The notes under the pieces: generated by a model
The model's database searches: none
What the model saw: only the letters and a program-made list of their open reading frames with translations
Told to the model about the DNA's origin: nothing
NCBI GenBank assembly: GCA_035315805.1
Contig: DATFXN010000053.1
Span: 25-64,024 of the forward strand
DNA length: 64,000 bases
From: Chthoniobacterales bacterium
Lineage (GTDB): Bacteria; Verrucomicrobiota; Verrucomicrobiia; Chthoniobacterales; UBA10450
Reading direction: 5' to 3'
Made by a program: the position numbers and the translations under genes
Part shown: in pieces, positions 3,969-60,944 of the stretch
How the letters are laid out: the number at the start of each line of letters is the position of its first letter
Position numbering within the stretch: the stretch's first letter is position 1

Positions 3969-3979
3969 ATGTCGATCTA
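3969..3979 (+). repeat. intergenic copy of the over-represented word (ATGTCGATCTA variant), 2 nt after the response-regulator stop
   Basis: exact string match; see findings. Confidence 0.9.
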
Positions 3980-4002
3980 ACCGCTGACTGCCTGCCGTCG
4001 CT

Positions 4003-4749
4003 TTAGTGAAGGTGGGTCGACCCGACGCGCGCAGGCCGGATGCTTGCAGCTGCGCCTGCGAGATTTCTGGTGGTCGTTGGCAGGTCGCAGAAATTAGCCA
4101 ATCGCTCCAGCATCGCCGGTGGATTTGCCTGAAGTTCTTCAAACTGCACCCGCCGATAATACGGGAAGTCGGCGAGTTGTTCGGCAGCCTTGAGATAGAT
4201 TTGGACTAGCTGAGCGCAGTAATCGAGGTCCGCCAGGTTTGGGGTCGGCGCGTCCCCGGCCGCCTGGAATTTCAATTCGCGTTCTCGAATACTCGATGCC
4301 GCCGCACGCGTGTTGCGGACAACGTGAACAAGGCGCGCCTGGGGAAAAATCTCGAGCCAGGCCGAAGCAAACAATGTTGTGCGCGGTTCTTTCCAACCCC
4401 AGGGCGCTCCGAAATGTAGCCGCGCGCGCAGCCACAGGCCTTTCGGATTTCGGGAGTAGCCAAAAATCCGGCCGAAATCGCACCGGATACTTGTCCGTAG
4501 ATAGGCAACGCAATCCTGCATACCTTCCGCGGTTCCGATCTGTTTCAAAAATGGCTGCGGATTGTGCCAGGCTGCGCCGACCCGTCGCAAATAGTCCTCG
4601 TGTAATTTTTGTAACCCTCGCGGCTCACAGTGGCTGTCCAGCTGCTGACCAATTTGTAGCCCGAGCAGTTCCAGCGCGTGCGCAATGGCGCTCGTGCCCG
4701 AGCGATGCGCGCCGATGATGAGGACCGGCGGATGATGTCGATCTTTCAT
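4003..4749 (-). CDS. sulfotransferase family protein
   Basis: N-terminal PAPS 5'-phosphosulfate-binding loop LIIGAHRSGTSAI; later VVRNTRAAASS (3'-PB-like). Confidence 0.8.
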   Translation of the reverse strand: MKDRHHPPVLIIGAHRSGTSAIAHALELLGLQIGQQLDSHCEPRGLQKLHEDYLRRVGAAWHNPQPFLKQIGTAEGMQDCVAYLRTSIRCDFGRIFGYSRNPKGLWLRARLHFGAPWGWKEPRTTLFASAWLEIFPQARLVHVVRNTRAAASSIRERELKFQAAGDAPTPNLADLDYCAQLVQIYLKAAEQLADFPYYRRVQFEELQANPPAMLERLANFCDLPTTTRNLAGAAASIRPARVGSTHLH

Positions 4750-4761
4750 GCGAAGGCGCGA

Positions 4762-6600
4762 TCAAGCCGTGTAACCCAAGCGCGCGTCCAAATGCTTGAG
4801 CGCGTCGGCGGCAAATGCCTGGTCTTCCGGCGAGAGGTAATCGCGATAGCCGCCCACTCTCCCGCGGCGAACTTTGAACGATTCCGGATTGCGGACATCG
4901 CGTGAGCGCAGAATTTTCGAATCGAACACGCCGGCTGCTTCCAGCCGTTGCATATTGGCAAAGTCGGAGAACTCGAGGGCGTGTTTGAACGCCTCCGGGT
5001 CCGGCGAACTCTCGCCCAGAGTCGCCAGGATCACGCGGAAGTTCTTTTCCGGCGCCGCGCGCAACGATTCATAATGGACCAAGGTAAAATTCTTGCGGCG
5101 GGCAAATTCAGCGAACCAGTTGTTCATAGTTTTGATGATCGACATGATTCCGTAACGGCGGTCACGCAGCAGATCACCGATGCTTTTCTCCTTTAATTCC
5201 TGTGGCGTTTCAGGGGTACGGTGAACGAGCTGCATGTAGAGCGAAACAAATGCGTCTCGTGGGTCCCGCACCATCAGGATGATGCGGGCCCGAGCCAGCT
5301 CACGCGCGGGCACGAGATATTTGCCGCGAATTCGTTCCCAGAACGTCGCCTTCATTCGCTGCTCAGCGAAATCGTGGGAGAAAATCATCCGCGGAATAAT
5401 GGGTTCGTGGTATCGGTCGGGACGAAGCGTAAATGGCAGGCCGGTGCGCTTGCAGAAATAGGCGCAGAGAAAAGTGCGCACCCAGGTGCGCCCGCTTTTC
5501 GGCACCGAGATTACAACGACATCGCCGCCCGAAAGCTCGCGGGCGCGACTGCTCAGGTTCCATCGACCAAAGCTCCGGCGCCCACCCGAATCGGTTGATT
5601 CTCCGGGAATGCGCGCGACTTCCTGGAGAAGCTTCACATAACCCTCGGCGAAACTCTCCAGCGAATAGCGCGTTTCGATCAGTTCGCGTCCGCGGAGGCC
5701 AAAAGTTCTCCGCAGCTCGGCGTTTTGGATCAAACTGCTGAGCGTGTTGACCCAATCGTCCTGGGTTCGGGCCAGAAAACCATTTTCGCCATGAGAGATA
5801 ATCTTGTTGTTGACGCCGACATCAGAGGCGACGACGGCCGTGCCCATACCCATGTATTGCAAAATTTTGTAACCGCATTTGCCGCGGGTCCAAACCGAGT
5901 CCCACAGCGGCATAATGCCGATATCGAAACTGGCGAGGTTCGTTTGCTCGGTCTCCAATCGCCACGGGTCATTTTCGACGTGCACCTGATCGAGTTGAAG
6001 CGGTTTGTCCGAAACAACTTTCAATTTCAGACCGGGAAACTTTTCCGTTAAGCGCTGCAACGCCGGCTGAATGTGCCGGAGGTAAGGGAGACCGTCGCTC
6101 AATCCCACCCAGCCAATCGTTAAGCCCGGGCGATCGAAGTTCGGTTTCAACTGGTAACGGCGAAGGTCGATCGAAGTCGGCAATATAATCGCGCGACAAC
6201 CGCATGCTTCCGCGAAGCAAGCAAGGAAATCGTTGCCCGCCACTACCGCGGTGCAGTGCCGCACCGTTCGCAGGAATTTCTTGAAATCCTTTCCCCGCAA
6301 CGGGCGCCGGTGTTTTTGGTCGCGAAACATCACCGCATCGTCAAAATCGAAAATGATCCGGCGGTTGGCGCTCTGAAGAAGACCCAGCTCGAACTCGTTA
6401 AAACCGATGGTTTTGAAAAGAACGACCACATCGTGCCGGCGGGCTTCTCTCAGAACCCGCAGGCGTTCGGTTACGCTGGAACGCCGAGTCGGAACCACCG
6501 TCGCCTCAACTCCGAGTGCCGCATAATAATCAAGACAATCCCGCAAACGCAGCCGCGTGCTCGGAGCATTGCCATGTTCGACAACACAGAGAATTTTCAT
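4762..6600 (-). CDS. bifunctional GT4-type glycosyltransferase (N-terminal) / sulfotransferase (C-terminal) fusion
   Basis: N-terminal half is GT1/GT4-like (..GKCGYKILQYMGMGTAVVASDVGVNNKIISHGENGFL..). C-terminal half has VISVPKSGRTWVRTFL (5'-PSB) and MVRDPRDAFVSLY (3'-PB). Start taken at MKILCVV (6600). Confidence 0.8.
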   Translation of the reverse strand: MKILCVVEHGNAPSTRLRLRDCLDYYAALGVEATVVPTRRSSVTERLRVLREARRHDVVVLFKTIGFNEFELGLLQSANRRIIFDFDDAVMFRDQKHRRPLRGKDFKKFLRTVRHCTAVVAGNDFLACFAEACGCRAIILPTSIDLRRYQLKPNFDRPGLTIGWVGLSDGLPYLRHIQPALQRLTEKFPGLKLKVVSDKPLQLDQVHVENDPWRLETEQTNLASFDIGIMPLWDSVWTRGKCGYKILQYMGMGTAVVASDVGVNNKIISHGENGFLARTQDDWVNTLSSLIQNAELRRTFGLRGRELIETRYSLESFAEGYVKLLQEVARIPGESTDSGGRRSFGRWNLSSRARELSGGDVVVISVPKSGRTWVRTFLCAYFCKRTGLPFTLRPDRYHEPIIPRMIFSHDFAEQRMKATFWERIRGKYLVPARELARARIILMVRDPRDAFVSLYMQLVHRTPETPQELKEKSIGDLLRDRRYGIMSIIKTMNNWFAEFARRKNFTLVHYESLRAAPEKNFRVILATLGESSPDPEAFKHALEFSDFANMQRLEAAGVFDSKILRSRDVRNPESFKVRRGRVGGYRDYLSPEDQAFAADALKHLDARLGYTA

Positions 6601-6893
6601 TCTTAATCGCTCAGGCGCGACCATACCATTTTTGGGCGGTCTTTGGTAGGGCGCGGCGCTTGCGCCACCTCTCGGTGGCTAAGACCGACATCAGTCGGGC
6701 GGAATGCTTTTGCGCGCCTCGCACGAAACCTGTTAGCTTGTAGGCGGAGAGTGTTGCCTCCGAGAGCGTGTGCTCCGCATGAAATCTAAACCCAGGCTGC
6801 GAAACCGCCAACGTGTCCCGAGCGACGAACTCGAGCTGCTGTATCAAACAATCGGTTCCATCGGCGATTGGGAGTGCCGGCTCCGATTCGGAC

Positions 6894-7781
6894 TTAACGC
6901 AACGGCCGCGCCACCAAAATTCCGGAATCGCTCCGATAGGTGTAGAGATAGGTGGAAAGGCGTGAATCGACGAGCACGCGGCCATAATTGTGCGGAGCCG
7001 ACGCGTGCATGAAATGCAAAACGCCGTCATTCGTTCGCAGCGCCAGTCCGACGTGCGAGGTGGAGTAAAGTCCGCCGCGTTCGTGTGAAACGATTCCGAT
7101 AATGTCGCCGGTTTGCAGTTTCGACTCGATTTTCGCGACGCGGCCCTTGGGGATTTGATAGAGCGGCCGCCTTGAAACGTCCGCTTCCATTCGCGCAAGC
7201 GGCTCAAGCAACGATTTATTGGCCGCCAGATAACGATAATGCCGCCAGCCTGCGCTCATTTCCCGCGCCGAATGCGGTACGCTCTGTCCACCAAGTTTCG
7301 TCGTCAGGTCTTCCACCAATCCGCGCTTGTTGTTGTCGTAGAGCCAGTCCTCCAAATAATGGAGCCGCGAAAGATATTCGCCTGTGCACACGCCGCCGCG
7401 GTAGCGATCGACTTCGACGTAATGGAGAAAATTTTCCGGCGTCCAATTTTCTTCCGGCTCGTTCAACATCCGCGCAAACGCGAGCGACGTTTCGAAAAAC
7501 GTCCAACAATCCAGTCCGTCAAAATTTACCGACGGTGACTCGATCCGATTGTCGATCTCGAGCGTGTACGACTTGTAACGGGTGCCGGTCAGCGCCTGTC
7601 CCACCGCCGCCGTCCGTTGCCCGATCGGCAGCGATTTCCAATCGTTTTCTTTCGCCAGCGAAACCAGTCGATTGAACTGTGGTTCGCCTTTGAAAATTGT
7701 TTTGAACGGCAGCCGCGACTCAAACGCCGTCGCTGTCACGCAAATCAGGAGTATTGGAACAAGAATTCTCCAAGCCCTCAT
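6894..7781 (-). CDS. secreted DUF1460 (AmiA-like amidase/cysteine-peptidase fold) protein
   Basis: Signal peptide MRAWRILVPILLICVTATA; conserved ..VNFDGLDCWTFFETSLAFARML.. recalled from the DUF1460 family. Confidence 0.6.
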   Translation of the reverse strand: MRAWRILVPILLICVTATAFESRLPFKTIFKGEPQFNRLVSLAKENDWKSLPIGQRTAAVGQALTGTRYKSYTLEIDNRIESPSVNFDGLDCWTFFETSLAFARMLNEPEENWTPENFLHYVEVDRYRGGVCTGEYLSRLHYLEDWLYDNNKRGLVEDLTTKLGGQSVPHSAREMSAGWRHYRYLAANKSLLEPLARMEADVSRRPLYQIPKGRVAKIESKLQTGDIIGIVSHERGGLYSTSHVGLALRTNDGVLHFMHASAPHNYGRVLVDSRLSTYLYTYRSDSGILVARPLR

Positions 7782-7895
7782 AGGTCGGAAACTGAAATCG
7801 AAATTTTCCGGTAATCAAGGGCCCTGTACGGGGACGCTGCTAGCGTCCCTCCTGAAAGATTGGGAAAACAAGCTGCTTCTCCCTACAGTTCGGGT

Positions 7896-8906
7896 TTAGC
7901 GTGTAAATCGGTCCCGTAACGAATATGCCCGCGACTTCAGGAATTCTTTCGGCCGCTCCCCACGAATTGGTTTCACGAAATAGCGCAGCGAACGCTGATT
8001 CAAGCGCGGCTCGTAACCAAATTCAGCCATCAAATCCCGGCAGTGCCATTCCACCCAGCCGATTTCGCCTTCGTGTAAATCATTTTCCCATCGACGGACC
8101 GGAGTGGCGCTGACCTCGGCAAACCGGTCTCCGACCGCGGAGTTGCCCGCCCATGGTCGGCCGACTTTTGTCGGACTGAGTACAATGTCAGGGTCGAAAT
8201 TGATTTCGAGATAGTCGCACACCTTTTGCATGGAAATCTTCGGATCGAGCGCGAGATTTTCGTAACCGATGACGAGGCCGGGAATTTCCCGGTTGCGAAT
8301 TTTCTTCGCCAGGTTTGCTGCAGTCTGCCAGTGCGCGACCACGTAGTAAACCGAGAACCGCCGTGTCTTGCGCGTGTGCTCAAGCGCGATCTGCGCGGCG
8401 AGCAACGCGCGCGGGTCGCGCATCGTTAAGAGCAACTTCGCTTTCGGGAAGCGATTGAAGATTTCCGGAACGTAGTTCCGATTGGCCGGAGTCTTTTCGA
8501 CCCAGCGTTTCACCCGTTCGAGTGGAACGCCCACGACTTCGGCGTACGCTTCCATCATCACCACAAGCAAATCGCGGCTTGCGTTCGATGGATCGAACGC
8601 GACGCGCTCGAACGTCTCGAGAAACTTCTTCTTCGGAAATTCGGCGTAGTCCTGCCGACCTCGCATCGCTTGAAACCCGAAGAGAACGTTGGTCCACGAT
8701 TCCTTGGTTAGATAATCGAACTGCGCCCGTCGCCCCCGGTCGCGATATTTCGTCAGCACGGTCGGGAAATACGCCGTGTCCTGCGGCATCACCAGCAACT
8801 CGGGATGACTATCGAGCAGCGACACCAGCAGCGTCGTCCCCGATTTCGCCGCGCCCGCGATGAAGCAAGCGCGCTCGTCGAACGCCAGTTTTTGTGTCGA
8901 ACTCAT
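7896..8906 (-). CDS. sulfotransferase family protein
   Basis: FIAGAAKSGTTLLVSLLDSHPEL (5'-PSB loop) and LLTMRDPRALLAAQI (3'-PB). Start at internal ATG 8906 (MSSTQKLAF..). Confidence 0.8.
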   Translation of the reverse strand: MSSTQKLAFDERACFIAGAAKSGTTLLVSLLDSHPELLVMPQDTAYFPTVLTKYRDRGRRAQFDYLTKESWTNVLFGFQAMRGRQDYAEFPKKKFLETFERVAFDPSNASRDLLVVMMEAYAEVVGVPLERVKRWVEKTPANRNYVPEIFNRFPKAKLLLTMRDPRALLAAQIALEHTRKTRRFSVYYVVAHWQTAANLAKKIRNREIPGLVIGYENLALDPKISMQKVCDYLEINFDPDIVLSPTKVGRPWAGNSAVGDRFAEVSATPVRRWENDLHEGEIGWVEWHCRDLMAEFGYEPRLNQRSLRYFVKPIRGERPKEFLKSRAYSLRDRFTR

Positions 8907-9050
8907 CTTCTGAGGTGGATCGGCCGCTCCGCGGACGATGTTAAATAATGCGGCTTCGCCGCCTAAAATTAGCATCGAGCAAGGGACTGCTCGATCCACC
9001 TTTTCTTACGCCACTTGGCAGGCCCTGCCAAATGTGATCGTTTGTCCGAA

Positions 9051-9743
9051 ATGCCCGACGTTTTGCTTACTAACTCCGCTGTCGCCGACCGCGCTGAAGA
9101 TTTGCTGCCCGAGTATCGCGCAATCATCCAGAAAATTCCGCCCGAAGCCGGCTTTGGCGGAATCTGGGAAAGCGAAATGCTTTTGTTTTACGCAGCGGTA
9201 AAACCTTTCGCGCCGAAGCAGATTCTCGAATCCGGTCGTGCCCGCGGCAAAAGCACGCTTATTCTCGCCCGCTGTTTTCCGGAATCACGAATGATTAGCG
9301 TCGAGTGTGATCGACAATCCGAAAACGCTACCGCCGCGGAAGCGAAATTGAAGAACGAACAGAATGTCGATCTTCTCTACGGCGATTCACGCGAGATTTT
9401 GCCGGGACGATTGCAAGATGGCGATGCAGTCTTGATCGATGGCCCAAAGGACTTTCGCGCGCTTAAGTTGGCTGTCGATTTTCTCCGCACCAAAAAACCG
9501 TGCGCAGTTTTCATTCACGATTTCCGGCCGAATTCGCCTCAGCGAAAATTCGTCGAGCGCAATTTCCCGAGCGCCTTCTTTGGCGACGATCCACTCTTTC
9601 AACACTTCCAAAGTTTGGACGCGGAACGTGATCCGCGCCCAAATCCGCAAAGGCGTTATGGGATCCTCTGTTGCCTGCCCCCGCGGTTGCCGATTTCGTA
9701 TTGGAAACTGCGCTTCCGACTGCTAACTCACGGCAAGGCGTGA
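9051..9743 (+). CDS. class I SAM-dependent methyltransferase-like protein
   Basis: Rossmann-like ILESGRARGKSTLILARCF..VECD..LLYGDSREIL..DAVLIDGPKD (O-methyltransferase/Methyltransf_24-like). Confidence 0.6.
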   Translation: MPDVLLTNSAVADRAEDLLPEYRAIIQKIPPEAGFGGIWESEMLLFYAAVKPFAPKQILESGRARGKSTLILARCFPESRMISVECDRQSENATAAEAKLKNEQNVDLLYGDSREILPGRLQDGDAVLIDGPKDFRALKLAVDFLRTKKPCAVFIHDFRPNSPQRKFVERNFPSAFFGDDPLFQHFQSLDAERDPRPNPQRRYGILCCLPPRLPISYWKLRFRLLTHGKA

Positions 9744-9784
9744 GTGTTTGATTCGCTGCGACACGCTTATATCGTCCCTCGACT

Positions 9785-10729
9785 GTGCCGAATCCTTTTT
9801 CGAGAAAGCGGAAGATAGTTCGCCACGCGCAGCACGCCGCCGCGAAGAAATCGAAGCGCGTTAAGCTGCGGCCGGGGAGCGAATGGACCAAGCGCAATTT
9901 TCTTACTAGCGTTTGGATCCCATCGCTCTTCACGAAACGTTCCGGCACCCGCGCGCGCCCGTTATTTCCAAAAGTGCAGCCTGGGCAGATTTGCATCACC
10001 TGGATCGGTCACGCCTCATTCCTAATTCAAACGCACGATGCGAATGTCCTGATCGATCCGATTTGGTCGATGTGGCTGAGCGTGATCAAGCGGCTGAAGG
10101 AGCCAGGCTTTCACATTCATCATTTGCCGTCGATTGATTTCGTTCTCGTCACCCACGCGCACTTCGATCATCTCGATCGCCGCACGCTGCGTCTCGTCGC
10201 CGCCGACCAACCAATTGTTGTTCCGGTTGGAGTCGGACGTTTGGTGCATCGGCTCGGATTCAACATTGTGCACGAGCTCGACGAATGGCAGACGATCGAG
10301 CTCGGTCCGTTGCGCGTCTCGCTCACGCCGGCGCATCATTGGGGCGCGCGGTTTCTGGCGGATACTCATCGTGGCTTTGGCGGCTTTGTTATTGGCGCGA
10401 ACGGCCCCTCTGTTTTTCATTGCGGCGACACCGCCTACTTCGAAGGTTTCAAGGAAATCGGCGAGCGTCACGACATCGAGATCGCGCTTCTGCCGATCGG
10501 CGCCTACGATCCGCCGCTTGCGCGCGAAGTGCATATGAATCCGGAGGAAGCCGTGCTCGCGTTCAAAGAATTAAATGCCAAGACCCTAGTGCCGATGCAC
10601 TACGGAACATTCCGTCTCGGCTATGAGCCGCTCGAAGAACCGCTTGAGCGTTTGCGCGAGTCCGCCCGTGTTCACGGAATTGAAGACAAAGTGCTCGTTA
10701 TGACCGAAGGAAGGCCGGTCGTTTTATAG
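9785..10729 (+). CDS. MBL-fold metallo-hydrolase
   Basis: ITWIGHASFLIQ..VLVTHAHFDHLD..FHCGDTAY..PMHYGTF motifs; GTG start. Confidence 0.8.
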   Translation: MPNPFSRKRKIVRHAQHAAAKKSKRVKLRPGSEWTKRNFLTSVWIPSLFTKRSGTRARPLFPKVQPGQICITWIGHASFLIQTHDANVLIDPIWSMWLSVIKRLKEPGFHIHHLPSIDFVLVTHAHFDHLDRRTLRLVAADQPIVVPVGVGRLVHRLGFNIVHELDEWQTIELGPLRVSLTPAHHWGARFLADTHRGFGGFVIGANGPSVFHCGDTAYFEGFKEIGERHDIEIALLPIGAYDPPLAREVHMNPEEAVLAFKELNAKTLVPMHYGTFRLGYEPLEEPLERLRESARVHGIEDKVLVMTEGRPVVL

Positions 10730-10733
10730 TGAT

Positions 10734-10800
10734 CAGTGACCTGTGATCAGTGATCGGCAAGAATGGTGAGCCAACATAGTTCACTGGTCACTGGTCACAG
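10734..10800 (+). promoter_or_regulatory. 22-bp imperfect stem-loop enclosing the ATG (10763) of the downstream membrane-protein gene
   Basis: Arm A 10734-10755 (CAGTGACCTGTGATCAGTGATC) pairs with arm B 10779-10800 (GTTCACTGGTCACTGGTCACAG): 18 WC pairs, 1 GU, 3 mismatches. The arms are built from GTGA(C/T)CAGTGA repeats that start at the upstream TAG stop. Confidence 0.55.
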
Positions 10801-14589: not shown

Positions 14590-14592
14590 CAA

Positions 14593-16215: not shown

Positions 16216-16235
16216 CTCGCCGCCGCGCCGATCCA

Positions 16236-18694: not shown

Positions 18695-18697
18695 TTC

Positions 18698-21741: not shown

Positions 21742-21742
21742 C

Positions 21743-48687: not shown

Positions 48688-48748
48688 GCGCGCGCTTGCT
48701 TCCGGACGCCTCCCGCGAAAAACTGCGCTGGTCGCGCACAAGTTGCAG

Positions 48749-50028: not shown

Positions 50029-50045
50029 AGAACATTTGCGTGCCT

Positions 50046-50056
50046 AAGATCGACAT
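50046..50056 (-). repeat. intergenic copy of the word (AAGATCGACAT), 18 nt after the plsC stop
   Basis: exact string match. Confidence 0.9.
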
Positions 50057-50070
50057 CGAATAGTATTCTG

Positions 50071-50253
50071 GTGAACCCAGAGCCGAAAATATCCAAGCAT
50101 GTGGGTCGGCTGATGGTCGGGATCGTGATCGGTTTCGCACTGGTCGCGCTTTATGCCAACATTCAAAAACTGCGGCGCGCGGCATTCGAAACGGTCATTT
50201 TCACACCGGGCGGGTCACCCACTCCGACGCCATCGCCCACGTCTACGCGTTGA
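50071..50253 (+). CDS. hypothetical small single-TM protein
   Basis: 60-aa ORF, one TM helix (GRLMVGIVIGFALVALYA), PT-rich tail; GTG start. Confidence 0.3.
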   Translation: MNPEPKISKHVGRLMVGIVIGFALVALYANIQKLRRAAFETVIFTPGGSPTPTPSPTSTR

Positions 50254-50286
50254 ATAACGAGAAGGAAAAGCGGTCTAATCATCGCC

Positions 50287-52056: not shown

Positions 52057-52075
52057 CGCGGTGCAAGCCGCGCGA

Positions 52076-54781
52076 TTATTCGGAACCTGAAGGCGCTTGT
52101 CGCGCTGCCAATTCGCGAGCGTAGGTCAATGTGTCGATCGCATCGACATTTTTATCCCGCCGAATCGCTTTAATCCGCGGAAAACGCAGTGCGAGTCCGC
52201 TTGCATGCCGCGTGCTGGGTTGAATCGAATTGAATGCAACTTCGAGCACGATGTCCGGTTTCACTTCGCGGTAGCGGCCGTCATTGACGATCGTGTTTTG
52301 TTTGAAATGCTCGGTCAATTCTGCGATCTCGACGTCGGTCAATCCGCTGTACGCTTTGCCGATCGGTAAAAGTTCGCCGGTCGATTCATCGCGCACGGCG
52401 AACGTGTAATCGCTCAACACATTGTTGCGTTTCCCGTGTCCGAATTCCGCACCCACGACCACGACGTCGAGCGTGGCCAGTTCTTTCTTCAATTTGAACC
52501 AAAACATTCCCCGCGTGCCTGGCGTGTAGAAACTTTTCGGATCTTTGATCATCAACCCTTCGTTCAAACGGCGCCGCGATTCCTGAAAACGTTCCTCGAT
52601 CTCGGCTGCAGAATGGACTGGCAAGACTTCAGCGATTCGGAACTGCTGCGGAAATTTCAAATCGCGCAACAATTTCCGTCGCTCCATAAGCGCAGTCTTC
52701 AGGAGCGAACGCTCATTCAGCCAAAGCAAATCGAAGGCAACGAACGCGACCGGAACGTCAGCCGACGCTCTCGCGAATAAATCGGCGCTGAAGTCCGATT
52801 TTCGTCCGAGTCGTTTTTGTAAATCGAAGAAGGTCAGTTTGCGTCCTTCTTCGTAGGCGACGATCTCGCCGTCGAGGATAAGATCGACATCGAACTGGCG
52901 CCCTCGCTCGGCCAGCTCCGGAAATTGATCGGTGATCCGGCGCAAATCGCGCGAATAGATTTCGGCGCCTTCGGAGCTGCGATGGAGCTGGGCGCGGATG
53001 CCATCGAACTTGTCTTCGACGAACACGACCTTCGAATGCTGCTCGACGAATCTTTTCCAGATCGCTTCCGCGGTCGGCTCAGGCGTCGCGAGCATGCATT
53101 TAATCGGTCGAAAGATCGACAACTCGGCGCGATCTAGGTGTTTTTCCGACGCAAGCGACGCCGTCGCGCCGATGTCGCCGAGCAACATGTTCGCTTCCCT
53201 GACCTGCTCGATGGGAACTTCGAACGCGCGCGAAATCGCTTCTTCCACCAAGCCTTCACGTAAACCAATGCGGAGATCGCCCGTCAAAATTTTGACGACG
53301 TATTCACCTTCAGGGGCGGACAAATTCGCAAATCGGTTTTGAAGCAGTTCGGTCTTCGCAATTGGTCCCCGGGCGCGATGAAGTTCTTCGAAAAGTTTTC
53401 TCGATTCCAAAATCGAAAATGGTTTTGGAGTTGTGCGGCCGTTGAGCACATCGAACGCGCTTTTGCCGAGATCACCATGGCTCGCCGCGATGCGATGAAA
53501 TTCGGCATCACCGATTTTAGCGGAGACGACCAGGGCTCGATAAATCACCGACCAGCCGACTTGAAGCGTGCGAAGATCGCTTTGCGCAAATGCGCGACCG
53601 GTCAGATAAGTCGCGACGATCCGCAACTGTTCGCTGTTTAGCGTCCGCAAATAATCCGCGAGCAATCGAACCTTCTCGAGCTTCGCGCGCCTTGCGCGGA
53701 TCGATTCGCCAACGCTGGCGAATGTTAAGAATTCTGAATTTGTAGGAGCAGCCGTGCCGGCCGTGTCTTTGTTAGGGACAAGCGAGACGCCTGCCACCAC
53801 AGTCTTTGCCAATTTGAGTTCCATTTGGTTTTCTCCACTCAGTGCCCAGGCGTCGATCCCGCGCTCGCGCAGATCGCGCGCGAACTCGGCGGCGAAGCCG
53901 TGAACTGTGAGCACGCGCTTCGGCTTCACAAGATCGACATAGCGAACGAGATCGTTGTAGTCGGCGTGATCGGAGAGTGGGAATGCGGCGTCGACCTGGT
54001 AGCGATAAATAGCGATCGGCTCCATCGCCCAGCCGCTGATCATCGCCACGCGTCTACGGGGAATGTTGTCGATCATCGGCGAGTGGCTCGCGCTCGGTGG
54101 ACAAATCAGCACCTTGCCGGCGACTTGGTTCTTGTTGTAGCGAACGTATTTGCAAAATGATTGGCCGAATTGCTCGTAAATGCGCGTCATTTGATAAACC
54201 GAGCCATGCAGCATTGGCGTTAACCCCACGCCATCGAGCGAACACAAGATCTCCTGCGCTTTACCCAACGAATAGCCGAGCAACACCGGGACTGTGCCGT
54301 CTTCAATTGCGTCGCGGCAGAACGCTACGATCTGCTCGATCACCTTGTCGGTCGGCGGGAATTGATAACGCGGCAAACCGAACGTGGTTTCCATGATTAG
54401 CGTGCCGGCTTCACGCCATTTGGCGGCTTCGGCCGATTTTCCGCGACGCAATTTGAAATCGCCCGTGTAAAGCAGCGTTTCATCGTTGCTCGTGAGAAAT
54501 AATTGGGCCGAACCGAAAATGTGACCGGCCGGCAGCAGAGTTAGATCGACATCGTGGATATGCCGCTGTTCACCGAATGGAAGTGCGTGCTCGATTCGAG
54601 TCCCCGGCATCCGCGCTTGAAGTAAACGCGCAGTCCGCTCGGAAAGAACGATTTCCTGGTGCGGCGCGATGTGATCGCTGTGGGCGTGCGACACAAAGGC
54701 GAAACGTTTTGGCTCCCAGGGATCGAGCCAGAAGTCGTGCGCCGGAAGATAAACCCCGTGATTATAGCGCACTTCTATCAT
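52076..54781 (-). CDS. fusion: ligase-associated beta-CASP/MBL exonuclease (N-terminal) + ATP-dependent DNA ligase (C-terminal)
   Basis: N-terminus has FVSHAHSDHI, ..LYTGDFKL.., ..SDHADYNDL..TVHG (beta-CASP). C-terminus has the ligase DNA-binding domain, adenylation motif I EDKFDGIRAQL, and an OB domain. Start at MIEVRYNHG (54781), because the upstream 99 codons of the ORF look non-coding. Confidence 0.85.
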   Translation of the reverse strand: MIEVRYNHGVYLPAHDFWLDPWEPKRFAFVSHAHSDHIAPHQEIVLSERTARLLQARMPGTRIEHALPFGEQRHIHDVDLTLLPAGHIFGSAQLFLTSNDETLLYTGDFKLRRGKSAEAAKWREAGTLIMETTFGLPRYQFPPTDKVIEQIVAFCRDAIEDGTVPVLLGYSLGKAQEILCSLDGVGLTPMLHGSVYQMTRIYEQFGQSFCKYVRYNKNQVAGKVLICPPSASHSPMIDNIPRRRVAMISGWAMEPIAIYRYQVDAAFPLSDHADYNDLVRYVDLVKPKRVLTVHGFAAEFARDLRERGIDAWALSGENQMELKLAKTVVAGVSLVPNKDTAGTAAPTNSEFLTFASVGESIRARRAKLEKVRLLADYLRTLNSEQLRIVATYLTGRAFAQSDLRTLQVGWSVIYRALVVSAKIGDAEFHRIAASHGDLGKSAFDVLNGRTTPKPFSILESRKLFEELHRARGPIAKTELLQNRFANLSAPEGEYVVKILTGDLRIGLREGLVEEAISRAFEVPIEQVREANMLLGDIGATASLASEKHLDRAELSIFRPIKCMLATPEPTAEAIWKRFVEQHSKVVFVEDKFDGIRAQLHRSSEGAEIYSRDLRRITDQFPELAERGRQFDVDLILDGEIVAYEEGRKLTFFDLQKRLGRKSDFSADLFARASADVPVAFVAFDLLWLNERSLLKTALMERRKLLRDLKFPQQFRIAEVLPVHSAAEIEERFQESRRRLNEGLMIKDPKSFYTPGTRGMFWFKLKKELATLDVVVVGAEFGHGKRNNVLSDYTFAVRDESTGELLPIGKAYSGLTDVEIAELTEHFKQNTIVNDGRYREVKPDIVLEVAFNSIQPSTRHASGLALRFPRIKAIRRDKNVDAIDTLTYARELAARQAPSGSE

Positions 54782-54939
54782 CACAAAGCTTAACCCTCGG
54801 ATTGAGAGGCTTCCAAATTTCCTAAACAGGATTTGCCCCGATTTCTTACGAACCCCGAATTTCTGGATGCTGTTTACCCTGTTAATCCGGTCTAGTTCCC
54901 GATTGCGCTTTTCGGGGAGAAGAGGTTTCATTGTAAGCG

Positions 54940-55539
54940 ATGCGGTTCCCGGTTTTTTTCCTGGTGGTTGTGGCACTCGGCAGCGTTTTCGGTCGCACCG
55001 AGGAGCAGCCGCGCGTGCTGACGCGGGTAACTCCATTACCGATGGCGTTGAGTGACGATTTTCAATTTCGAAAGACAAAACTTTATCTTTTGACCGAGAC
55101 GGCGCCGGGGCAGGGAAAAACTACTGGCGATCAAGCAACTCGGGGTGGAGGTAAAGGCGGCAAACTTTCGAGCACTGCGCCCTCGAGCAAATCGACCACA
55201 GTTCAGGACGCTTCCATTCGGTTCGAACGACAGTATCGACTTTTTGGCGCGGTCACAAAGCTAGACCTGCGCGAGCGCGTCGGAAATTACTTCGATTTCT
55301 TCTGGAAGGCGCGCCGAAGTGCGGATTTGATGGTGCGCCTAGAATACCGGCAGGAAAAATTGCACGCCCACGTCCAAGCCCAGGAGATTTCCTACCCCAG
55401 TGCGCGCGGCAGTTACAAAACGGAATTCAAAGTCGTGGGAGACGATTACTTCGACGACGGCCCGGTAACAGCGTGGCGTTGTTTGCTGATCGAAAATGGC
55501 CGGATTGTGGCGGAGACGCATTCCTACATGTGGGAGTAG
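54940..55539 (+). CDS. secreted hypothetical protein
   Basis: Signal peptide MRFPVFFLVVVALGSVFG; no recognised domain. Confidence 0.5.
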   Translation: MRFPVFFLVVVALGSVFGRTEEQPRVLTRVTPLPMALSDDFQFRKTKLYLLTETAPGQGKTTGDQATRGGGKGGKLSSTAPSSKSTTVQDASIRFERQYRLFGAVTKLDLRERVGNYFDFFWKARRSADLMVRLEYRQEKLHAHVQAQEISYPSARGSYKTEFKVVGDDYFDDGPVTAWRCLLIENGRIVAETHSYMWE

Positions 55540-55588
55540 GTTTCGACGGGCGCGATTCGTTAATGCCGGGTGCCGTTTGACAGCGCCG

Positions 55589-55599
55589 ATGTCGATCTT
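55589..55599 (+). repeat. intergenic copy of the word, 21 nt upstream of the STAS gene start
   Basis: exact string match (cgATGTCGATCTTGTATTC). Confidence 0.9.
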
Positions 55600-55619
55600 G
55601 TATTCTTAGTTATTCAGCT

Positions 55620-56132
55620 GTGCAGTCAACGATTCTAGTGGGCGTGAATGGACCCGCCGTTTGGGTGCGAGTGGAAGGCAAGGGCAACTTCCTCAACAGT
55701 GGGAGCCTGAAGCAATTCGCGCAAGAGATGGTCAACCGCGGTTATCGCGAGTTTGTCATAGACCTGGAACATTGCGCGATGATGGATTCTACCTTCATGG
55801 GAACAATGGCGGCGGTCGCGCTGCGGTTAAAGGAACTAGGGCAAGGTCATCTTCACATCGTTCACTGTGGCGAGCGCAGCCGCGAACTTCTTTCCGGACT
55901 CGGGCTCGATCAGATTTTCGACATTCGCCCGAATGGCGCGGTCGCTCCGGAATGTGAGCAGATGAAGGAGAACGCGCGCGATGGCGCCGAAGCGGAAAAG
56001 AGAGAGCGGACCGAAACCATGTTGGAAGCGCACGAAGCCCTCTGCGAGGCGGCGCCGGAAAATCTTTCCCGGTTTAAAGACGTTCTCGATTATCTAAAAC
56101 AGGACCTCCATCAAACGACAGCGGGGAAGTAA
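55620..56132 (+). CDS. STAS-domain protein (anti-sigma-factor antagonist-like)
   Basis: ..VRVEGKGNFLNSGSLKQFAQEMVNRGYREFVIDLEHCAMMDSTFMGTMAAV..; GTG start. Confidence 0.7.
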   Translation: MQSTILVGVNGPAVWVRVEGKGNFLNSGSLKQFAQEMVNRGYREFVIDLEHCAMMDSTFMGTMAAVALRLKELGQGHLHIVHCGERSRELLSGLGLDQIFDIRPNGAVAPECEQMKENARDGAEAEKRERTETMLEAHEALCEAAPENLSRFKDVLDYLKQDLHQTTAGK

Positions 56133-57578
56133 TTGGCCACGCTCTCGCCAACTATTCTCTTCTGGCTGCTAATCGGCTGTCTGGCGTTGTGGCTCTACAC
56201 TCTCCTGTGTCAGCGGCGAAGTATTCGCCGATTAGAACGTTCGCAGGAGGAGATCCAGGTCGAAGAAACGCTGGTCTTCGATTTTCTTCATGGCCTCGGT
56301 GAAGCTTTCAGCGACACGATCCGCCCGGGCGACCTCCACCGTTTGATTGTCGAAGGCGCGACCCGGGTTCTCGATGCGCAGGGCGGCGCGCTCTATCTCA
56401 CTGATCGAACTGGGACAAAACTCACACCGGCATTCCTCTCCAAAGGTTGCCCGCCGCTGGTGGATGTGCCAGTGCATATCTTGCAACAAGCCGCAGCCTC
56501 CCCGGCTGCCTTGGAGAGTTTTCTCCAGCTTCACCATATCAGCAGCGGCGAAGGATTGCTCGGTTTCATCTGGCAAACGGCTGCACCGGTTTGCCTAAAT
56601 GAATTTTCGCAAGCGCCGGAGCTGGCCAAGCTGCGCGATAGTTCATTTGGCGCGAGCTCGGTAATGGCGGCGCCGCTTCTCTACGCCAAACAAAACATGG
56701 GCGTGCTCGCGCTCGCCAACAGCCGGTTGGGCTCGCCCTTCTCACAAAACGACTTCTTTGTTTTCAAATCGATCACCGAGCAGTCCGCCTTTGCGCTCTA
56801 CAACGCGATCATTTATTCCGAGGCCAACGAAAAGAAGCGACTCGATCATGACCTCGAAATTGCGCGCGATATTCAGCGAATTTTGCTTCCCGCAGAGGCA
56901 CCGAATGTAAATGGATTTGAGATTAGCGGGATAAATGTGCCGGCACGTCAAGTCAGTGGCGATTATTTTGATTACGTTAAAATCGATGACGAACGGCTCG
57001 GAGTCGCTATCGCGGATGTTTCGGGCAAGGGCGTTCCCGCTTCGCTGATCATGGCGATTTGCCGAAGCGTCCTGCGCAGTCAGGCAGTCGGAAATCCCTC
57101 GCCGGCTGATGTTCTCCAAAAAGTGAACCGCCAACTTTATCCCGATATCAAAGAAGACATGTTCATCAGCATGGCCTATCTGGTTCTCGATCATGCGCGG
57201 GCCGGAGTCACACTCGCGCGCGCCGGACACGATGCGCCGCTCCTTTACAAACAGAGAACGCGGACAGCCGAACCGTTGAAACCGCCAGGGATGGTTGTCG
57301 GCATTGACAGGGGAGACGTGTTCGACAGGTTAACTAGGGATGTCGCGGTGGGGCTCGAGCGCGACGATTGCATCCTTCTTTACACGGATGGAATCACTGA
57401 AGCACTTGATAATGAAGGGAATGAATTTGGATTGCAGCGAACGATCGCCTCGGTTCAATCCAGCGCTAGAGAAGGGGCGCAAACGATCGTGACCCGATTG
57501 ATCGACGATTTGCGAAACTTCGTCGGCTCGACTCCGCAGAACGACGACATCACCCTAATTGCGATCCGAAAAACATGA
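56133..57578 (+). CDS. membrane-anchored GAF + PP2C/SpoIIE phosphatase (RsbU-like)
   Basis: N-terminal TM helix, GAF-like region, SpoIIE core ..QVSGDYFDY..IADVSGKGVPASL..LYTDGITEA..NDDITLIAIRK; TTG start. Confidence 0.8.
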   Translation: MATLSPTILFWLLIGCLALWLYTLLCQRRSIRRLERSQEEIQVEETLVFDFLHGLGEAFSDTIRPGDLHRLIVEGATRVLDAQGGALYLTDRTGTKLTPAFLSKGCPPLVDVPVHILQQAAASPAALESFLQLHHISSGEGLLGFIWQTAAPVCLNEFSQAPELAKLRDSSFGASSVMAAPLLYAKQNMGVLALANSRLGSPFSQNDFFVFKSITEQSAFALYNAIIYSEANEKKRLDHDLEIARDIQRILLPAEAPNVNGFEISGINVPARQVSGDYFDYVKIDDERLGVAIADVSGKGVPASLIMAICRSVLRSQAVGNPSPADVLQKVNRQLYPDIKEDMFISMAYLVLDHARAGVTLARAGHDAPLLYKQRTRTAEPLKPPGMVVGIDRGDVFDRLTRDVAVGLERDDCILLYTDGITEALDNEGNEFGLQRTIASVQSSAREGAQTIVTRLIDDLRNFVGSTPQNDDITLIAIRKT

Positions 57579-58138
57579 AAAAAGTTCCAGTAAACGAAAC
57601 TGACGATCCGCAAAAGCAGTCGAGCGCGGGCCAAAGATCGACACCTTCGGCGCCGGCGCCGGAACAGAGCGATGGCCAGGACGAAGTGGCCAGCATGCAG
57701 GCCGATCTGGACCGATTTCGCGATTTGGCGATGCGGAGCCAGGCTGATTTCGAAAATTACAAGAAGCGCTGCGCTCGCGAAAAAGACGAGGCGATCAAAT
57801 ATGCAAACAAGAGCCTGCTCGAGAAGCTCGTTTCGATTATCGATCACTTCGAGCTGGGGCTGGAGGCTGCTCGCGGGGAAAGCGAGACGTCACCCATTTA
57901 TTCGGGAATGAGCCTGGTGCTCAAACAGCTCCAGGATTTTCTCGCCGAAAACGGTCTGCAGCCGATTGAAGCGGTCGGTCAGAAATTCGATCCTAACCTG
58001 CACGAAGCCATTGCCCACGAGCCGAGCAACGAGGCTCCCGAGGAAGTGGTGATTCGCCAAACTCGCCGCGGCTATCGTTTCAAAGACCGCTTGCTTCGGC
58101 CATCTGCCGTTGTGGTCTCGAGCGGGCCGGCAAAATAA
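57575..58138 (+). CDS. grpE: nucleotide exchange factor GrpE
   Basis: ..RSQADFENYKKR..FDPNLHEAI..GYRFKDRLLRPSAVVV; ATGA overlap with the upstream phosphatase gene. Confidence 0.9.
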   Translation: MKKVPVNETDDPQKQSSAGQRSTPSAPAPEQSDGQDEVASMQADLDRFRDLAMRSQADFENYKKRCAREKDEAIKYANKSLLEKLVSIIDHFELGLEAARGESETSPIYSGMSLVLKQLQDFLAENGLQPIEAVGQKFDPNLHEAIAHEPSNEAPEEVVIRQTRRGYRFKDRLLRPSAVVVSSGPAK

Positions 58139-58156
58139 TTGCTGGTCAATTCAGCA

Positions 58157-59296
58157 ATGGCGACGACAAAAAAGCGCGATTATTACGAGGTTCTCGGAGT
58201 GAGCCGGGGCGCGTCCGCGGAAGAAATCAAGCGCGCTTATCGCAAGCTCGCGATAAAGTTTCATCCCGATAAGAATCCGGACGATTCGCACGCCGAAGAA
58301 AAATTTAAAGAGCTCGGCGAAGCCTACGACGTGTTGATGGATGCGGACAAGCGCGCCGCTTACGATCGCTTCGGGCACGCCGCGTTCGAGCAGGGCGGCG
58401 GCTTTCGCGGAGGTTTTCACGATCCGTTCGATATTTTCCGTGAAGTTTTTAGCGGCGGCGGAATTGGCGGTAGCATCTTCGAAACATTTTTCGGCGGCAT
58501 CGCCGGCCAAGGTGAAGATCGACAACGTGGTGCCGATTTGCGTTACGACATGCAGATCACGCTCGAAGAAGCAGCCTTTGGCGCGGAAAAAGAAATCGAA
58601 GTTCGCAAACTCGACATTTGCGAGAAATGCGGCGGTAGTGGAGCCGAACCGGGATCACGCAGCATCAATTGCCCGGTTTGCTGCGGCCGCGGCCAGGTGA
58701 TCAGCTCACGCGGATTTTTCCAGGTCTCGCAGACTTGTCCGCGTTGCCGCGGTGTTGGCCACATCGTGGAGAAACCATGCCGCAACTGCGACGGCGAAGG
58801 ACGGCGGGAAAAGGCCAGCCGGATAAAATTGAAAATTCCGCCCGGAATTACCGGTAGCTCTCGACTACGCTCTCCGCGCAACGGCGAAGCCGGAATTCGT
58901 GGCGGCCCGCAGGGGGATCTCTACGTCGTGGTCCACGTGCAGGAACACAAAATTTTCCAGCGCGACGAAGATAATTTGTATTGTGAAGTCCCGATTCCGT
59001 TTACGACCGCCACCCTCGGCGGCGAAGTTCCAGTCCCAACATTGGAAGGCAAGGCAAATTTGAAGATCCCCGCCGGAACCCAAAGCGGTCAGGTGTTCAA
59101 GCTTCGCGGCAAAGGCATTGTCCAAGTGAACGGACGCGAGCGCGGGGATTTGCTCGTCCGCGCGATGGTTGAAGTGCCGACGCACCTCAACGCTGAGCAG
59201 CGCGCGAAGCTCCAGGAGTTTGCCGAATTGTGCGGCGAAGAGAACACCCCGCTGGGGAAAAGTTTCTTCGAACGCGCTAAAGAATTTTTCCGCTAA
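58157..59296 (+). CDS. dnaJ: molecular chaperone DnaJ
   Basis: J domain [17 protein letters not shown] region, four CxxCxG zinc-finger repeats. Confidence 0.93.
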
Positions 59297-59365
59297 ATGG
59301 TCTTGCGGAATTCATTTTCGCGCAGCGACTTGCTATTTCCCCCACGCCCTGCCTAAAACGTCGCG

Positions 59366-60131
59366 ATGGCTGACGAAACAACTCCGCCGCCGCCGCTTCC
59401 GACAACACAATCTACGCCGCGCACCGAGCCGCTTGCGATCTGGAGTCTAGTGTTGTCGATCTTGTCGTTTTTCGGCTGTCTTTTTCTTACGGTAATTCCC
59501 GCGATCATTTGCGGGCATGTAGCTCGTTCCAAAATTCGGAAATCAAACGGTGCGCTTCAAGGAATGAATCTTGCGCTCGCGAGTCTGATTGTTGCCTACC
59601 TCCAAATCCCGTTCGGTGTGCTCGGCGGAATCATGCTCGTCGACATGATCAAAAGCGAGCGCGTGCGTTTGCAGGCAGTGGCCGCCGAAAAAAAAGATCC
59701 CGTCCGACGATGGAAAGCTGAAGGTCACGACTTCGGGTTTTTGGGTGAAGCGAACGGATCTTAATCAGAAAGCGTCATTGCAAGCCGCTTACAACAGCAA
59801 GGACATGTACGTGATGGTGCTCAGCGAACCGAAGTCTGCTGTTCCCAACATGACCCTGCAGCAACATCATCAAACGACGCGCGACCACATTTTGAAACAA
59901 ATGACCAATTCATCGGCGACCGAACCGGCGCCGAGCACAATCGATAATCATCCCGCATTGCAAGACGAACTCAGTGGCACCGATCGCGGCAAAAATATTG
60001 TTTTTCTCCACACCACTGTCGACGAGGGCGAGTCTTTCCAGCAAATTCTGGCCTGGACGACGAAGTGGCATTGGGCAAAGCAAAACGGAGAGCTGCGCGA
60101 AGTCACGAACAGTTTTCACGTCGAGAGATAA
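59366..60131 (+). pseudogene. DUF4190-like membrane protein whose C-terminal domain is in another frame after the A8 run at 59688-59695
   Basis: ORF 59366-59764 (..LAIWSLVLSILSFFGCLFLTVIPAIICGHVARSKI..) and ORF 59745-60131 overlap. Removing one A gives the continuous reading ..AVAAEKKIPSDDGKLKVTTSGFWVKRTDLNQ.. Confidence 0.5.
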
Positions 60132-60149
60132 TCTTCGCCCTGCGGTTGC

Positions 60150-60944
60150 ATGCATCGGTTCTATATCGCGCCTGAAAATTGGAATCCCGATGCATTGATT
60201 TTGCGCGGCCTGCAAGCGCATCACGCGCGCGAAGTCTTGCGAATGAAGCGCGGGGAGCGCGCCGTAGTATTCAACGGACGCGGTCGCGAGATCACGGCGG
60301 AGATTGTCGATCTTGCGAAACGCGAGATTCGACTGCGCAAGTTGCAGGAAAACCAAACGCCGCCGTTGCGTGCGCGCATCACACTCGGGCAAGCGATTCC
60401 AAAAGGGAAAAACATGGACCTGATCGTGCAAAAGGCCGTCGAGATCGGCGCGGCGGAGATCGCGCCGCTGATTTCAGAGCGCACGATTGTCGATCTTGAT
60501 AAAAAGGAAGCGGAACAAAAACAGGAAAGGTGGCAGCAGATCGCGATCGAGGCGGCCAAGCAATGCGGACAGAACTGGGTGCCCCAGATTAGCACGCCAC
60601 AGAAGCTGAAAGAATTTTTTTTTGTAGAGGCGCGTGTCCTTATGCGCAGCCTTCCAGATGCGGCTGAGACAGCCGCCACTACACCATTTGACCTTCGTTT
60701 GATCGGATCGCTCCAACCGGATGCGATTCATCTGAAAAAAATTCTCGCCGATTATTCGGCGCAACATCGTGATCGAGCAAAAAGCGTTTTGATGATGGTT
60801 GGACCGGAAGGCGATTTCACTCCGGCCGAACTTGCGCTCGCGAAAAGCAACGGCTGTCTGCCGATTACACTCGGCCCAATAATTTTGCGCGTGGAAACCG
60901 CGGCGATCTATTGCCTCAGCGTGCTTTCTTACGAACTGATGTGA
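60150..60944 (+). CDS. rsmE: 16S rRNA (uracil1498-N3)-methyltransferase
   Basis: MHRFYI.., ..QAIPKGKNMDLIVQKAVEIGA.., ..VGPEGDFTPAE..; contains an internal insertion. Confidence 0.85.
   Translation: MHRFYIAPENWNPDALILRGLQAHHAREVLRMKRGERAVVFNGRGREITAEIVDLAKREIRLRKLQENQTPPLRARITLGQAIPKGKNMDLIVQKAVEIGAAEIAPLISERTIVDLDKKEAEQKQERWQQIAIEAAKQCGQNWVPQISTPQKLKEFFFVEARVLMRSLPDAAETAATTPFDLRLIGSLQPDAIHLKKILADYSAQHRDRAKSVLMMVGPEGDFTPAELALAKSNGCLPITLGPIILRVETAAIYCLSVLSYELM

Follow-up and report, generated by a model that had tools for sequence, protein, structure and literature searches.

We analysed a 64 kb window, i.e. the whole stretch of contig DATFXN010000053.1 presented above, from the genome of a Chthoniobacterales bacterium. 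The window has a GC content of 55.9% with weak GC skew, and its approximately 50 genes, among them panC, nadB, grpE, dnaJ, rsmE and the gene of an ATP-dependent DNA ligase, cover 83-88% of its length, leaving 12-17% non-coding. Scattered through these genes and the DNA between them lies a short word, TGTCGATCTT, which ranked by a wide margin as the commonest 10-mer of the window. A pattern search of both strands returned 33 exact copies, 17 on the plus and 16 on the minus strand, corresponding to 0.52 copies per kb or about one per 2 kb (Table 1). An earlier note on this DNA had claimed 33 exact copies, and all of its 17 plus-strand and 16 minus-strand coordinates proved correct, as did the four TGTCGATCTA variants it had placed at 3969/3970, 19919/19920, 25239/25240 and 54542. 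Its estimate of about 20 further one-mismatch variants captured a real excess, the actual number being 22 besides the four TGTCGATCTA forms, so that 26 one-mismatch variants in all compare with 6.4 expected. Dinucleotide-preserving shuffles of the window (n = 100) contained 0.15 exact copies on average and at most one. Markov models of orders 1 to 5, the last three of which the earlier note had proposed as a comparison, predicted 0.19, 0.26, 0.39, 0.56 and 2.5 copies, the order-5 value being too high because the word itself contaminates the model. With 33 copies observed and 0.15-0.4 expected, the excess over chance is ca. 100-200-fold.

Alignment of the 33 copies with 25 bases of flanking DNA on each side was used to define the extent of the word. 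Each of the 33 copies of GTCGATCTT in the window is immediately preceded by T. At position -1 of the 10-mer, 20 copies have A, 12 have T and the remaining one has G; at position -2, G is found 19 times and A ten times. At position +1 a weak preference for G is seen (14/33). Both the A/T choice 5' of the core and the lean towards G on its 3' side had been noted before. Beyond these positions the sequence logo is flat and the flanks are random. Information is confined to positions -2 and -1, with a weak contribution of +1, and the unit is therefore G-W-TGTCGATCTT, a word of 10-12 bp and nothing longer. It is asymmetric, its only palindromic parts being the internal GATC and TCGA, and no hairpin was found at any of the 33 aligned copies with their flanks. 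Copies are spaced irregularly (coefficient of variation 1.25) and show no strand polarity, with plus-to-minus ratios of 10:7 in the first and 7:9 in the second half of the window. One stretch of 12.2 kb (37883-50045) contains no exact copy and only one-mismatch variants, e.g. at 42620, which is marginally unusual (P ~0.03). Its genes are conserved housekeeping and signalling genes, e.g. those for a dynamin-like GTPase, a hybrid histidine kinase, aroA, cmk and a plsC-like protein. Reading this stretch as a foreign island is unsupported, given its GC content of 0.55-0.57, its housekeeping genes and its synteny with the related contig L016.

Based on gene calls checked against Pfam, 29 to 30 of the 33 copies lie inside genes and four lie outside called genes, one of these across a stop codon. 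Intragenic copies make use of five of the six reading frames and are translated as xVDL, (M/L)SI(F/L), KID, (K/Q/E)DR or xRST. A model of codon usage derived from the genes of the window predicts 0.2 coding copies, and each used frame is enriched 70- to 1,700-fold over this model. For the sixth frame, which reads Cys-Arg(CGA)-Ser, the same model expects 0.001 copies. Frame usage follows codon cost. The observed ratio of sense to antisense copies (20:10) is likewise what a codon-cost model gives (1.8:1), so there is no transcription-strand signal, and we rejected this option. Composition and codon usage were also rejected as a source of the word, since shuffles, Markov models of orders 1 to 5 and the codon model yield only 0.15-2.5 copies where 33 are found. 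A protein motif was rejected because the five frames give different peptides and some copies are intergenic. TGTCGATCTT is thus a DNA-level word, as the earlier note had claimed, in agreement with random flanks, use of five of six frames together with intergenic copies, the codon model's 0.2 copies and the ungapped substitutions found in relatives.

For comparison with other genomes, our data comprise 64 kb of the source genome (ca. 2%) and flanks of up to 10 kb on each side of two loci in relatives. The best relatives by NadB are metagenome-assembled genomes (MAGs) labelled Verrucomicrobia, Spartobacteria or Chthoniobacterales, with 76-90% amino-acid identity. The closest of them, L016 (90%), is syntenic over its positions 1-21590 with 28096-49082 of the window, the DNA being only 70-73% identical. 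An identical copy of a window protein was found only on short soil contigs (0.9-2.1 kb) from two metagenome samples of the Joint Genome Institute (JGI). GC content, soil origin and relatives would fit the globally abundant Candidatus Udaeobacter, a placement that we infer; a published MAG of this group has 3.22 Mb and 55.2% GC (PMC7343977).

A metagenome scan with the window's ligase yielded 80 soil contigs. In about 50 of these ligase-locus contigs the same canonical 10-mer recurs, its density being 0.2-1.2 copies per kb; L130, for example, has 16 in 18.9 kb and L133 has 13 in 22.8 kb. All word-bearing lineages are dominated by this one form, and drift into dialects within the clade, which we considered, was not seen. 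The word is almost absent from a large sister clade (L141-L162) and from two small nested groups, and no substitute word was found in the word-free sister-clade contigs. The tree behind these groupings was made from the single ligase gene by neighbour-joining with midpoint rooting, and the number of gains and losses is hence approximate. In word-bearing contigs, 83 kb of DNA that does not align to the window holds 24 copies, i.e. 0.29 per kb, whereas the aligned part has 0.53 per kb. The enrichment thus extends beyond the genes found in the window, and the density may be lower in less conserved DNA. Further, the same sites are present in independent assemblies from several projects.

We then mapped the word sites of word-bearing genomes onto their BLAST partners, with all 10-base windows of the same alignments serving as controls. 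Although genome pairs lack phylogenetic independence, the effect is very large: in word-bearing partners of 70-75% identity, 63% of the sites are exact over all ten bases compared with 5.8% of the controls, and these values become 72% and 10% at 75-80% identity. Exact sites make up only 0.9% in word-free partners that are equally divergent. There, the differences consist of one to six ungapped substitutions, and fully gapped word sites amount to 3 of 2,782. Mapping copies across related genomes, as suggested in the earlier note, thus revealed clear positional conservation, which extends to intergenic copies. The word-bearing partners in our site-by-site table for the window have an overall identity of only 72-80%, and nearly every window site is off by a few bases in the word-free partners. 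At the panC and nadB sites, relatives encode the same or similar peptides through other codons. The site at 52880 reads ..VDL in word-bearing genomes and ..EEL in most word-free ones, so the word overrode the protein sequence there. These alignments show that the word arose via point substitutions in ordinary coding positions, at least one of which entailed an amino-acid change.

Several word-poor lineages are nested within word-bearing clades, namely L104, L117, L115 and L120; L016, L006 and L001-L004; and L134-L148. They carry 0.04-0.09 exact and 0.27-0.41 one-mismatch copies per kb, compared with a one-mismatch background of 0.09-0.12 per kb that the word-free clade shares with distant Verrucomicrobiota. 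The 3-4-fold excess of one-mismatch copies represents relics of decayed words. L016 has only two exact words and many one-off forms, in which TGTCGATC is followed by CT, TG, TA or TC, and looks like a lineage with a decaying word. Judged from retained sites and relics, the word is old; an active process or selection preserves it in many lineages, and it has repeatedly been lost.

A second hyper-abundant word, GCCTAACGA, occurs on both strands in three Chthoniobacterales-like genomes (L008, 1-21593; L007, 1-14590; L002, 1-21593). We counted 37 copies of CCTAACGA in the 21.6 kb of L008, or about one per 580 bp, where 1.9 are expected, 18 copies in L007 and 12 in L002 (0.37 expected). Of the GCCTAACGA sites in L008, 60% are exact in L007 compared with 12% of controls. 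In L002 just 1 of 11 is exact, so this genome gained the same word at other positions. The NadB of L002 is 82% identical to that of the window, yet L002 contains no copy of TGTCGATCTT. A third, weaker word, TTCTAACAA, is present with 8-10 copies (0.4-0.7 expected) in two Akkermansiaceae MAGs (L052, 1-21554; L064, 1-17380), where T-TCTAACA-A (TCTAACAA/TGTTAGAA) reaches 7-10 copies with 0.4-0.8 expected. TTCTAACAA and GCCTAACGA have the core CTAAC in common, which hints at related specificities, and neither contains a palindromic methylation site. Words that are hyper-abundant and specific to a lineage thus seem to recur within Verrucomicrobiota. A further candidate, ACGCCGACGG in a Candidatus Auribacterota MAG (L069, 1800-7300), is unrelated and was set aside: its 21 copies lie on one strand, many of them spaced by multiples of 6-12 bp, and it looks like a coding tandem repeat.

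Viral sequences were scanned in IMG/VR with a 15-base pattern of 14 fixed bases. Among the matches listed, comprising 120 loci, 115 hold only the copy that seeded the match, and the 118 contigs other than L244 and L266 hold one or two copies. L244 (IMGVR_UViG_3300041809_000086) and L266 (IMGVR_UViG_3300036781_000818) each contain three exact words in 11-12 kb, which among the matches listed is above chance. Both may represent phages, or fragments of prophages, that belong to word-bearing hosts. The GC content of L266 is 67%, unlike that of the window.

Among known hyper-abundant words, the most similar are the DNA uptake sequence (DUS) of Neisseriaceae (AT-GCCGTCTGAA) and the uptake signal sequence (USS) of Pasteurellaceae (AAGTGCGGT), together called DNA uptake enhancing sequences (DUES). 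Their over-representation is roughly 100-450-fold, a range into which the ratios obtained for TGTCGATCTT fall. Words of the uptake-sequence type are known to be well established only in these two families, both of them proteobacterial, HIP1 of cyanobacteria being a recent candidate. DUS and USS are likewise non-palindromic 9-12-mers with an at least 100-fold excess and ca. 0.5-1 copies per kb, lie on both strands without polarity, fall into least-cost frames within genes, originate by point mutation, are conserved at orthologous sites and are lineage-specific with other words elsewhere (properties given in part in passages of PMC1939737, PMC3630211 and PMC2817400). Unlike them, TGTCGATCTT belongs to the phylum Verrucomicrobiota and is unrelated in sequence; the relevant passages of bioRxiv 10.1101/2025.10.24.684340 and PMC1939737 name only Neisseriaceae and Pasteurellaceae as carriers of uptake sequences. 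Save for features special to one or the other family, the word seems DUS/USS-like in every respect that is visible in sequence. The highly iterated palindrome HIP1 of cyanobacteria (GCGATCGC) is similar in being hyper-abundant, containing GATC and being conserved across orthologues. Its over-representation is given as 15-300-fold in a passage of PMC5861425, and it has been proposed as a methylation-dependent uptake sequence (bioRxiv 10.64898/2026.06.24.733823). In contrast to TGTCGATCTT, which is an asymmetric, irregularly spaced 10-12-mer of one clade of an order and no palindromic octamer, HIP1 is a palindromic 8-mer that is phylum-wide, quasi-periodic and recognised by cognate orphan methyltransferases. 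The resemblance to DUS, USS and HIP1 that the earlier note had pointed out is supported by fold excess, density, lack of polarity, conservation at orthologous sites, lineage restriction and the existence of other words elsewhere. Full-text literature searches found no prior description of the word, of uptake sequences or of competence in Verrucomicrobia or Udaeobacter, in line with the earlier note, which knew of no described equivalent in Verrucomicrobia.

Our preferred explanation, to which we give about an even chance, is that G-W-TGTCGATCTT serves as a lineage-specific uptake or self-recognition tag of the DUS/USS kind. A sequence-specific receptor for double-stranded DNA, being part of a DNA-import apparatus, would prefer fragments carrying the word, and imported DNA of the same species would then replace chromosomal DNA via homologous recombination. 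Alleles in which a point mutation has created the word would thereby be over-transmitted and mutated copies repaired, a form of molecular drive to which selection may possibly add. Copies would accumulate wherever the encoded protein tolerates the word, and after loss of the reader they would decay by mutation. The genomic pattern itself, consisting of the excess, the DNA-level nature, the lack of polarity, site retention, relics and other words in relatives, was observed directly. From it we infer that the reader would be a DNA-uptake receptor, that these bacteria would be transformable and that drive, not selection at each site, would maintain the copies.

A number of points weigh against an uptake tag. 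Pfam and NCBIfam searches found no competence, pilus or DNA-receptor genes (families such as ComEC, DprA, ComEA, type IV pilus proteins or ComP) among the ca. 50 genes of the 64 kb window and no gene for a reader of TGTCGATCTT there, although this absence says little because the window is such a small part of the genome. Literature reports of natural transformation in Verrucomicrobia were not found. Inverted copy pairs at gene ends and terminators, as known for DUS, are missing, the copies outside called genes having no inverted partner, and the AT-rich, helically phased flanking segments of USS are missing at the TGTCGATCTT copies as well. The other words are unrelated to TGTCGATCTT and not dialects differing by 1-2 bases, a pattern that a swappable specificity factor would explain no less well than a drifting receptor. 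Lastly, positional conservation is equally expected if the sites are individually selected, for example as protein-binding sites.

This last point leads to the alternative of a dense binding-site array for a chromosomal protein involved in nucleoid organisation, segregation or replication control, with sites under purifying selection that decay once the protein is lost. The exact 10-12 bp specificity, orientation independence, strong positional conservation including intergenic copies and decay elsewhere would all fit such an array. We nevertheless consider it unlikely: we know of no nucleoid protein that has thousands of letter-perfect 10-12-mers in coding DNA at the cost of amino-acid changes as at 52880, spacing is irregular with the coefficient of variation given above and a 12 kb copy-free gap, and frame usage tracks codon cost rather than position. 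Moreover, closely related lineages without the word or with an unrelated one would be odd for an essential architecture.

The word might also act in the manner of Chi, marking DNA as self for a translocating helicase-nuclease or defence system so that marked DNA is spared or sent to recombination. Words of this type, i.e. Chi (RecBCD/AddAB) and the FtsK-orienting polar sequences (KOPS), are 5-8 nt long, few-fold over-represented and strongly co-oriented with replication; like TGTCGATCTT, they are short over-represented DNA words scattered in genes. Restriction to certain lineages, active maintenance and repeated loss are compatible with this explanation, and unrelated words in relatives would be expected from a swappable specificity. 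The window does encode repair proteins (the metallo-beta-lactamase (MBL)-ligase fusion, an HhH-GPD glycosylase and RNase HII), all of which are ordinary housekeeping proteins, and Pfam and NCBIfam searches of the 64 kb found no restriction-modification, recombination-initiation or RecBCD/AddAB-type genes. A length of 10-12 nt, an excess of ca. 100-200-fold and a 17:16 distribution lacking polarity over 64 kb are unlike known Chi and unlike polar words such as KOPS and architecture imparting sequences (AIMS), and make a Chi-like role quite improbable.

Very doubtful, in our view, is a sequence-specific biased repair or methylation-linked conversion, resembling very-short-patch repair and once proposed for HIP1, which would generate a word that has no function itself. 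GATC and TCGA inside the word, the excess of one-mismatch variants (26 observed, 6.4 expected) and decay after loss, as with a switchable process, are points in its favour, as is the methylase link of HIP1, the closest GATC-containing analogue. However, the process would depend on an activity with a recognition length of 11-12 bp, in which the T at position 1 is absolute, and no repair activity of such specificity is known to us. GCCTAACGA and TTCTAACAA, moreover, lack a palindromic methylation site, and recent work on HIP1 points to a role in DNA uptake. That the word is a mobile element, a protein-coding repeat, a compositional quirk or an assembly artefact has next to no probability and nothing in its favour beyond repetition itself: repetitive extragenic palindromic (REP) sequences, bacterial interspersed mosaic elements (BIMEs) and miniature inverted-repeat transposable elements (MITEs) share with it the high copy number of a short sequence but are extragenic, form hairpins, comprise longer units and spread by insertion, whereas TGTCGATCTT is intragenic in 29-30 of 33 cases and has random flanks, five frames plus intergenic copies, ungapped substitutions at orthologous sites with 3 of 2,782 gapped, null models all below one copy except for order 5 (2.5) and sites that recur in independent assemblies, on which grounds a mobile element was rejected.

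If G-W-TGTCGATCTT is indeed an uptake tag, it would represent the third or fourth independent uptake-sequence-like case, found in an uncultured soil lineage of Chthoniobacterales, and sequence-biased exchange of DNA within species would operate in a major soil lineage. The ComP receptor of DUS is specific to Neisseriaceae. A more tentative extension, which we regard as improbable, is that Verrucomicrobiota carry a DNA self-recognition system of exchangeable specificity, in which closely related lineages exchange one 9-12-mer for another, unrelated one (TGTCGATCTT, GCCTAACGA, TTCTAACAA) or give up the tag, and whose reader would not be a ComP-type pilin. Such a reader could be a new DNA-import receptor, a gene-transfer-agent packaging signal or a nuclease self-marker, and the words would then be the genomic footprint of a mechanism that lacks a characterised counterpart. 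A reader other than an uptake receptor would indicate that genome-wide recognition systems include a new class. Lineages with the word, lineages that lost it and lineages with a different one exist side by side and amount to a natural experiment, in which the reader gene can be found by phylogenetic profiling. In practical terms, the word can serve as a species-group barcode for contig binning and for host assignment of mobile elements and viruses. We know of no cultured word-bearing strain; in transformation attempts, the word is an obvious addition to donor DNA.

Table 1. Exact copies and one-mismatch variants of TGTCGATCTT in the 64 kb window (MBL, metallo-beta-lactamase; ORF, open reading frame).
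Feature	Position	Strand	Context
Exact	4736..4745	+	antisense in sulfotransferase gene 4003-4749(-)
Exact	9365..9374	+	sense, ..VDL, methyltransferase-like gene 9015-9743
Exact	10917..10926	+	sense, LSIL, 734-aa ORF 10763-12967, no family match
Exact	11466..11475	+	sense, MSIL, ORF 10763-12967
Exact	11973..11982	+	sense, MSIF, ORF 10763-12967
Exact	12900..12909	+	overlap of ORFs 10763-12967 and 12874-14589
Exact	13449..13458	-	antisense in ORF 12874-14589
Exact	15356..15365	+	sense, MSIF, ORF 14593-16215
Exact	17993..18002	-	sense, ..VDL, MBL-fold gene 17756-18694(-)
Exact	20226..20235	-	antisense in MFS transporter gene 19891-21732
Exact	21731..21740	-	across stop of 19891-21732 and spacer preceding 21743
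Exact	22795..22804	-	antisense in SCP2 gene 22534-22953
Exact	23926..23935	+	antisense in ORF 22950-23972(-)
Exact	26974..26983	+	antisense in MBL-fold gene 26759-27511(-)
Exact	27356..27365	-	sense, ..VDL, MBL-fold gene 26759-27511(-)
Exact	29576..29585	+	outside called genes, between 28418-29308 and 29645-30427
Exact	31823..31832	-	sense, MSIF, PMT-family glycosyltransferase gene 30754-32532(-)
Exact	32955..32964	-	sense, MSIL, 3' end of lipid A acyltransferase/heptosyltransferase gene 32948-35008(-)
Exact	36860..36869	+	sense, DVDL, panC; relatives: G-V-D-L/F via other codons
Exact	37101..37110	-	antisense in panC; exact in L126; one mismatch in L016, L154, L001, L004
Exact	37262..37271	+	sense, IVDL, panC; exact in L006, L001; one mismatch in L016
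Exact	37873..37882	+	sense, HVDL, nadB; exact in L154
Exact	50046..50055	-	intergenic; exact in L085, L109, L087, L123 and word-poor L136
Exact	51879..51888	-	antisense in DUF6600 gene 50287-52056
Exact	52880..52889	-	sense, DVDL, MBL-ligase fusion gene; GGAGGAGCTG (..EEL) in most word-free relatives, e.g. L147, L149, L152
Exact	53112..53121	-	sense, LSIF, ligase gene; exact in 9/11 word-bearing partners shown
Exact	53930..53939	-	sense, YVDL, ligase gene; exact in 11/11 word-bearing partners shown
Exact	55590..55599	+	intergenic, upstream of STAS gene 55620; kept in several word-bearing partners
Exact	57634..57643	-	antisense in grpE
Exact	58515..58524	-	antisense in dnaJ; exact in 10/10 aligned word-bearing partners
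Exact	59454..59463	+	sense, LSIL, DUF4190 gene
Exact	60305..60314	+	sense, IVDL, rsmE
Exact	60488..60497	+	sense, IVDL, rsmE
One mismatch, TGTCGATCTA	3970..3979	+	intergenic
One mismatch, TGTCGATCTA	19920..19929	+	
One mismatch, TGTCGATCTA	25240..25249	+	
One mismatch, TGTCGATCTA	54542..54551	-	ligase gene
One mismatch, 22 others	1819..62427 (span)		leftmost base and strand: 1819+, 3051-, 5135-, 6681-, 7550+, 9473+, 11187+, 13787+, 15401+, 20726+, 21866-, 28113+, 31901-, 33466+, 34690+, 35979+, 42620+, 51519-, 51525-, 54067+, 61490+, 62418+

Some genes of the window deserve mention in their own right. The ligase gene (52076-55078, minus strand) encodes a 1000-residue fusion of an N-terminal metallo-beta-lactamase/RMMBL nuclease-like domain with a complete ATP-dependent DNA ligase (N, adenylation and C domains) and holds three exact words and two variants. 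Matches to its relatives often begin near residue 84-100, so that the N-terminus is variable. The panC ORF (36156-37436, plus strand) is 426 residues long. Its pantoate ligase domain covers only residues 162-423, and the first ca. 160 residues match nothing, which may reflect an N-terminal extension or fusion or a start called too far upstream. Three consecutive ORFs of 734, 571 and 540 residues at 10763-16215 (plus strand) have no Pfam or NCBIfam match and together contain six of the exact words listed in Table 1. AT skew in this region is strongly negative, down to -0.24, and a 94-base overlap between the first two ORFs contains one word.

The window further contains a transfer-messenger RNA (tmRNA) gene at 1688-2047 on the minus strand (163.9 bits) and a tRNA gene at 62850-62923 on the plus strand. 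As noticed earlier, the one-mismatch variant at 1819, TATCGATCTT, is located within the tmRNA gene. At 4003-8999, three genes of the sulfotransferase family, including a fusion with a glycosyltransferase, cluster with an AmiA-like amidase gene, which suggests a locus for a sulfated envelope polysaccharide.

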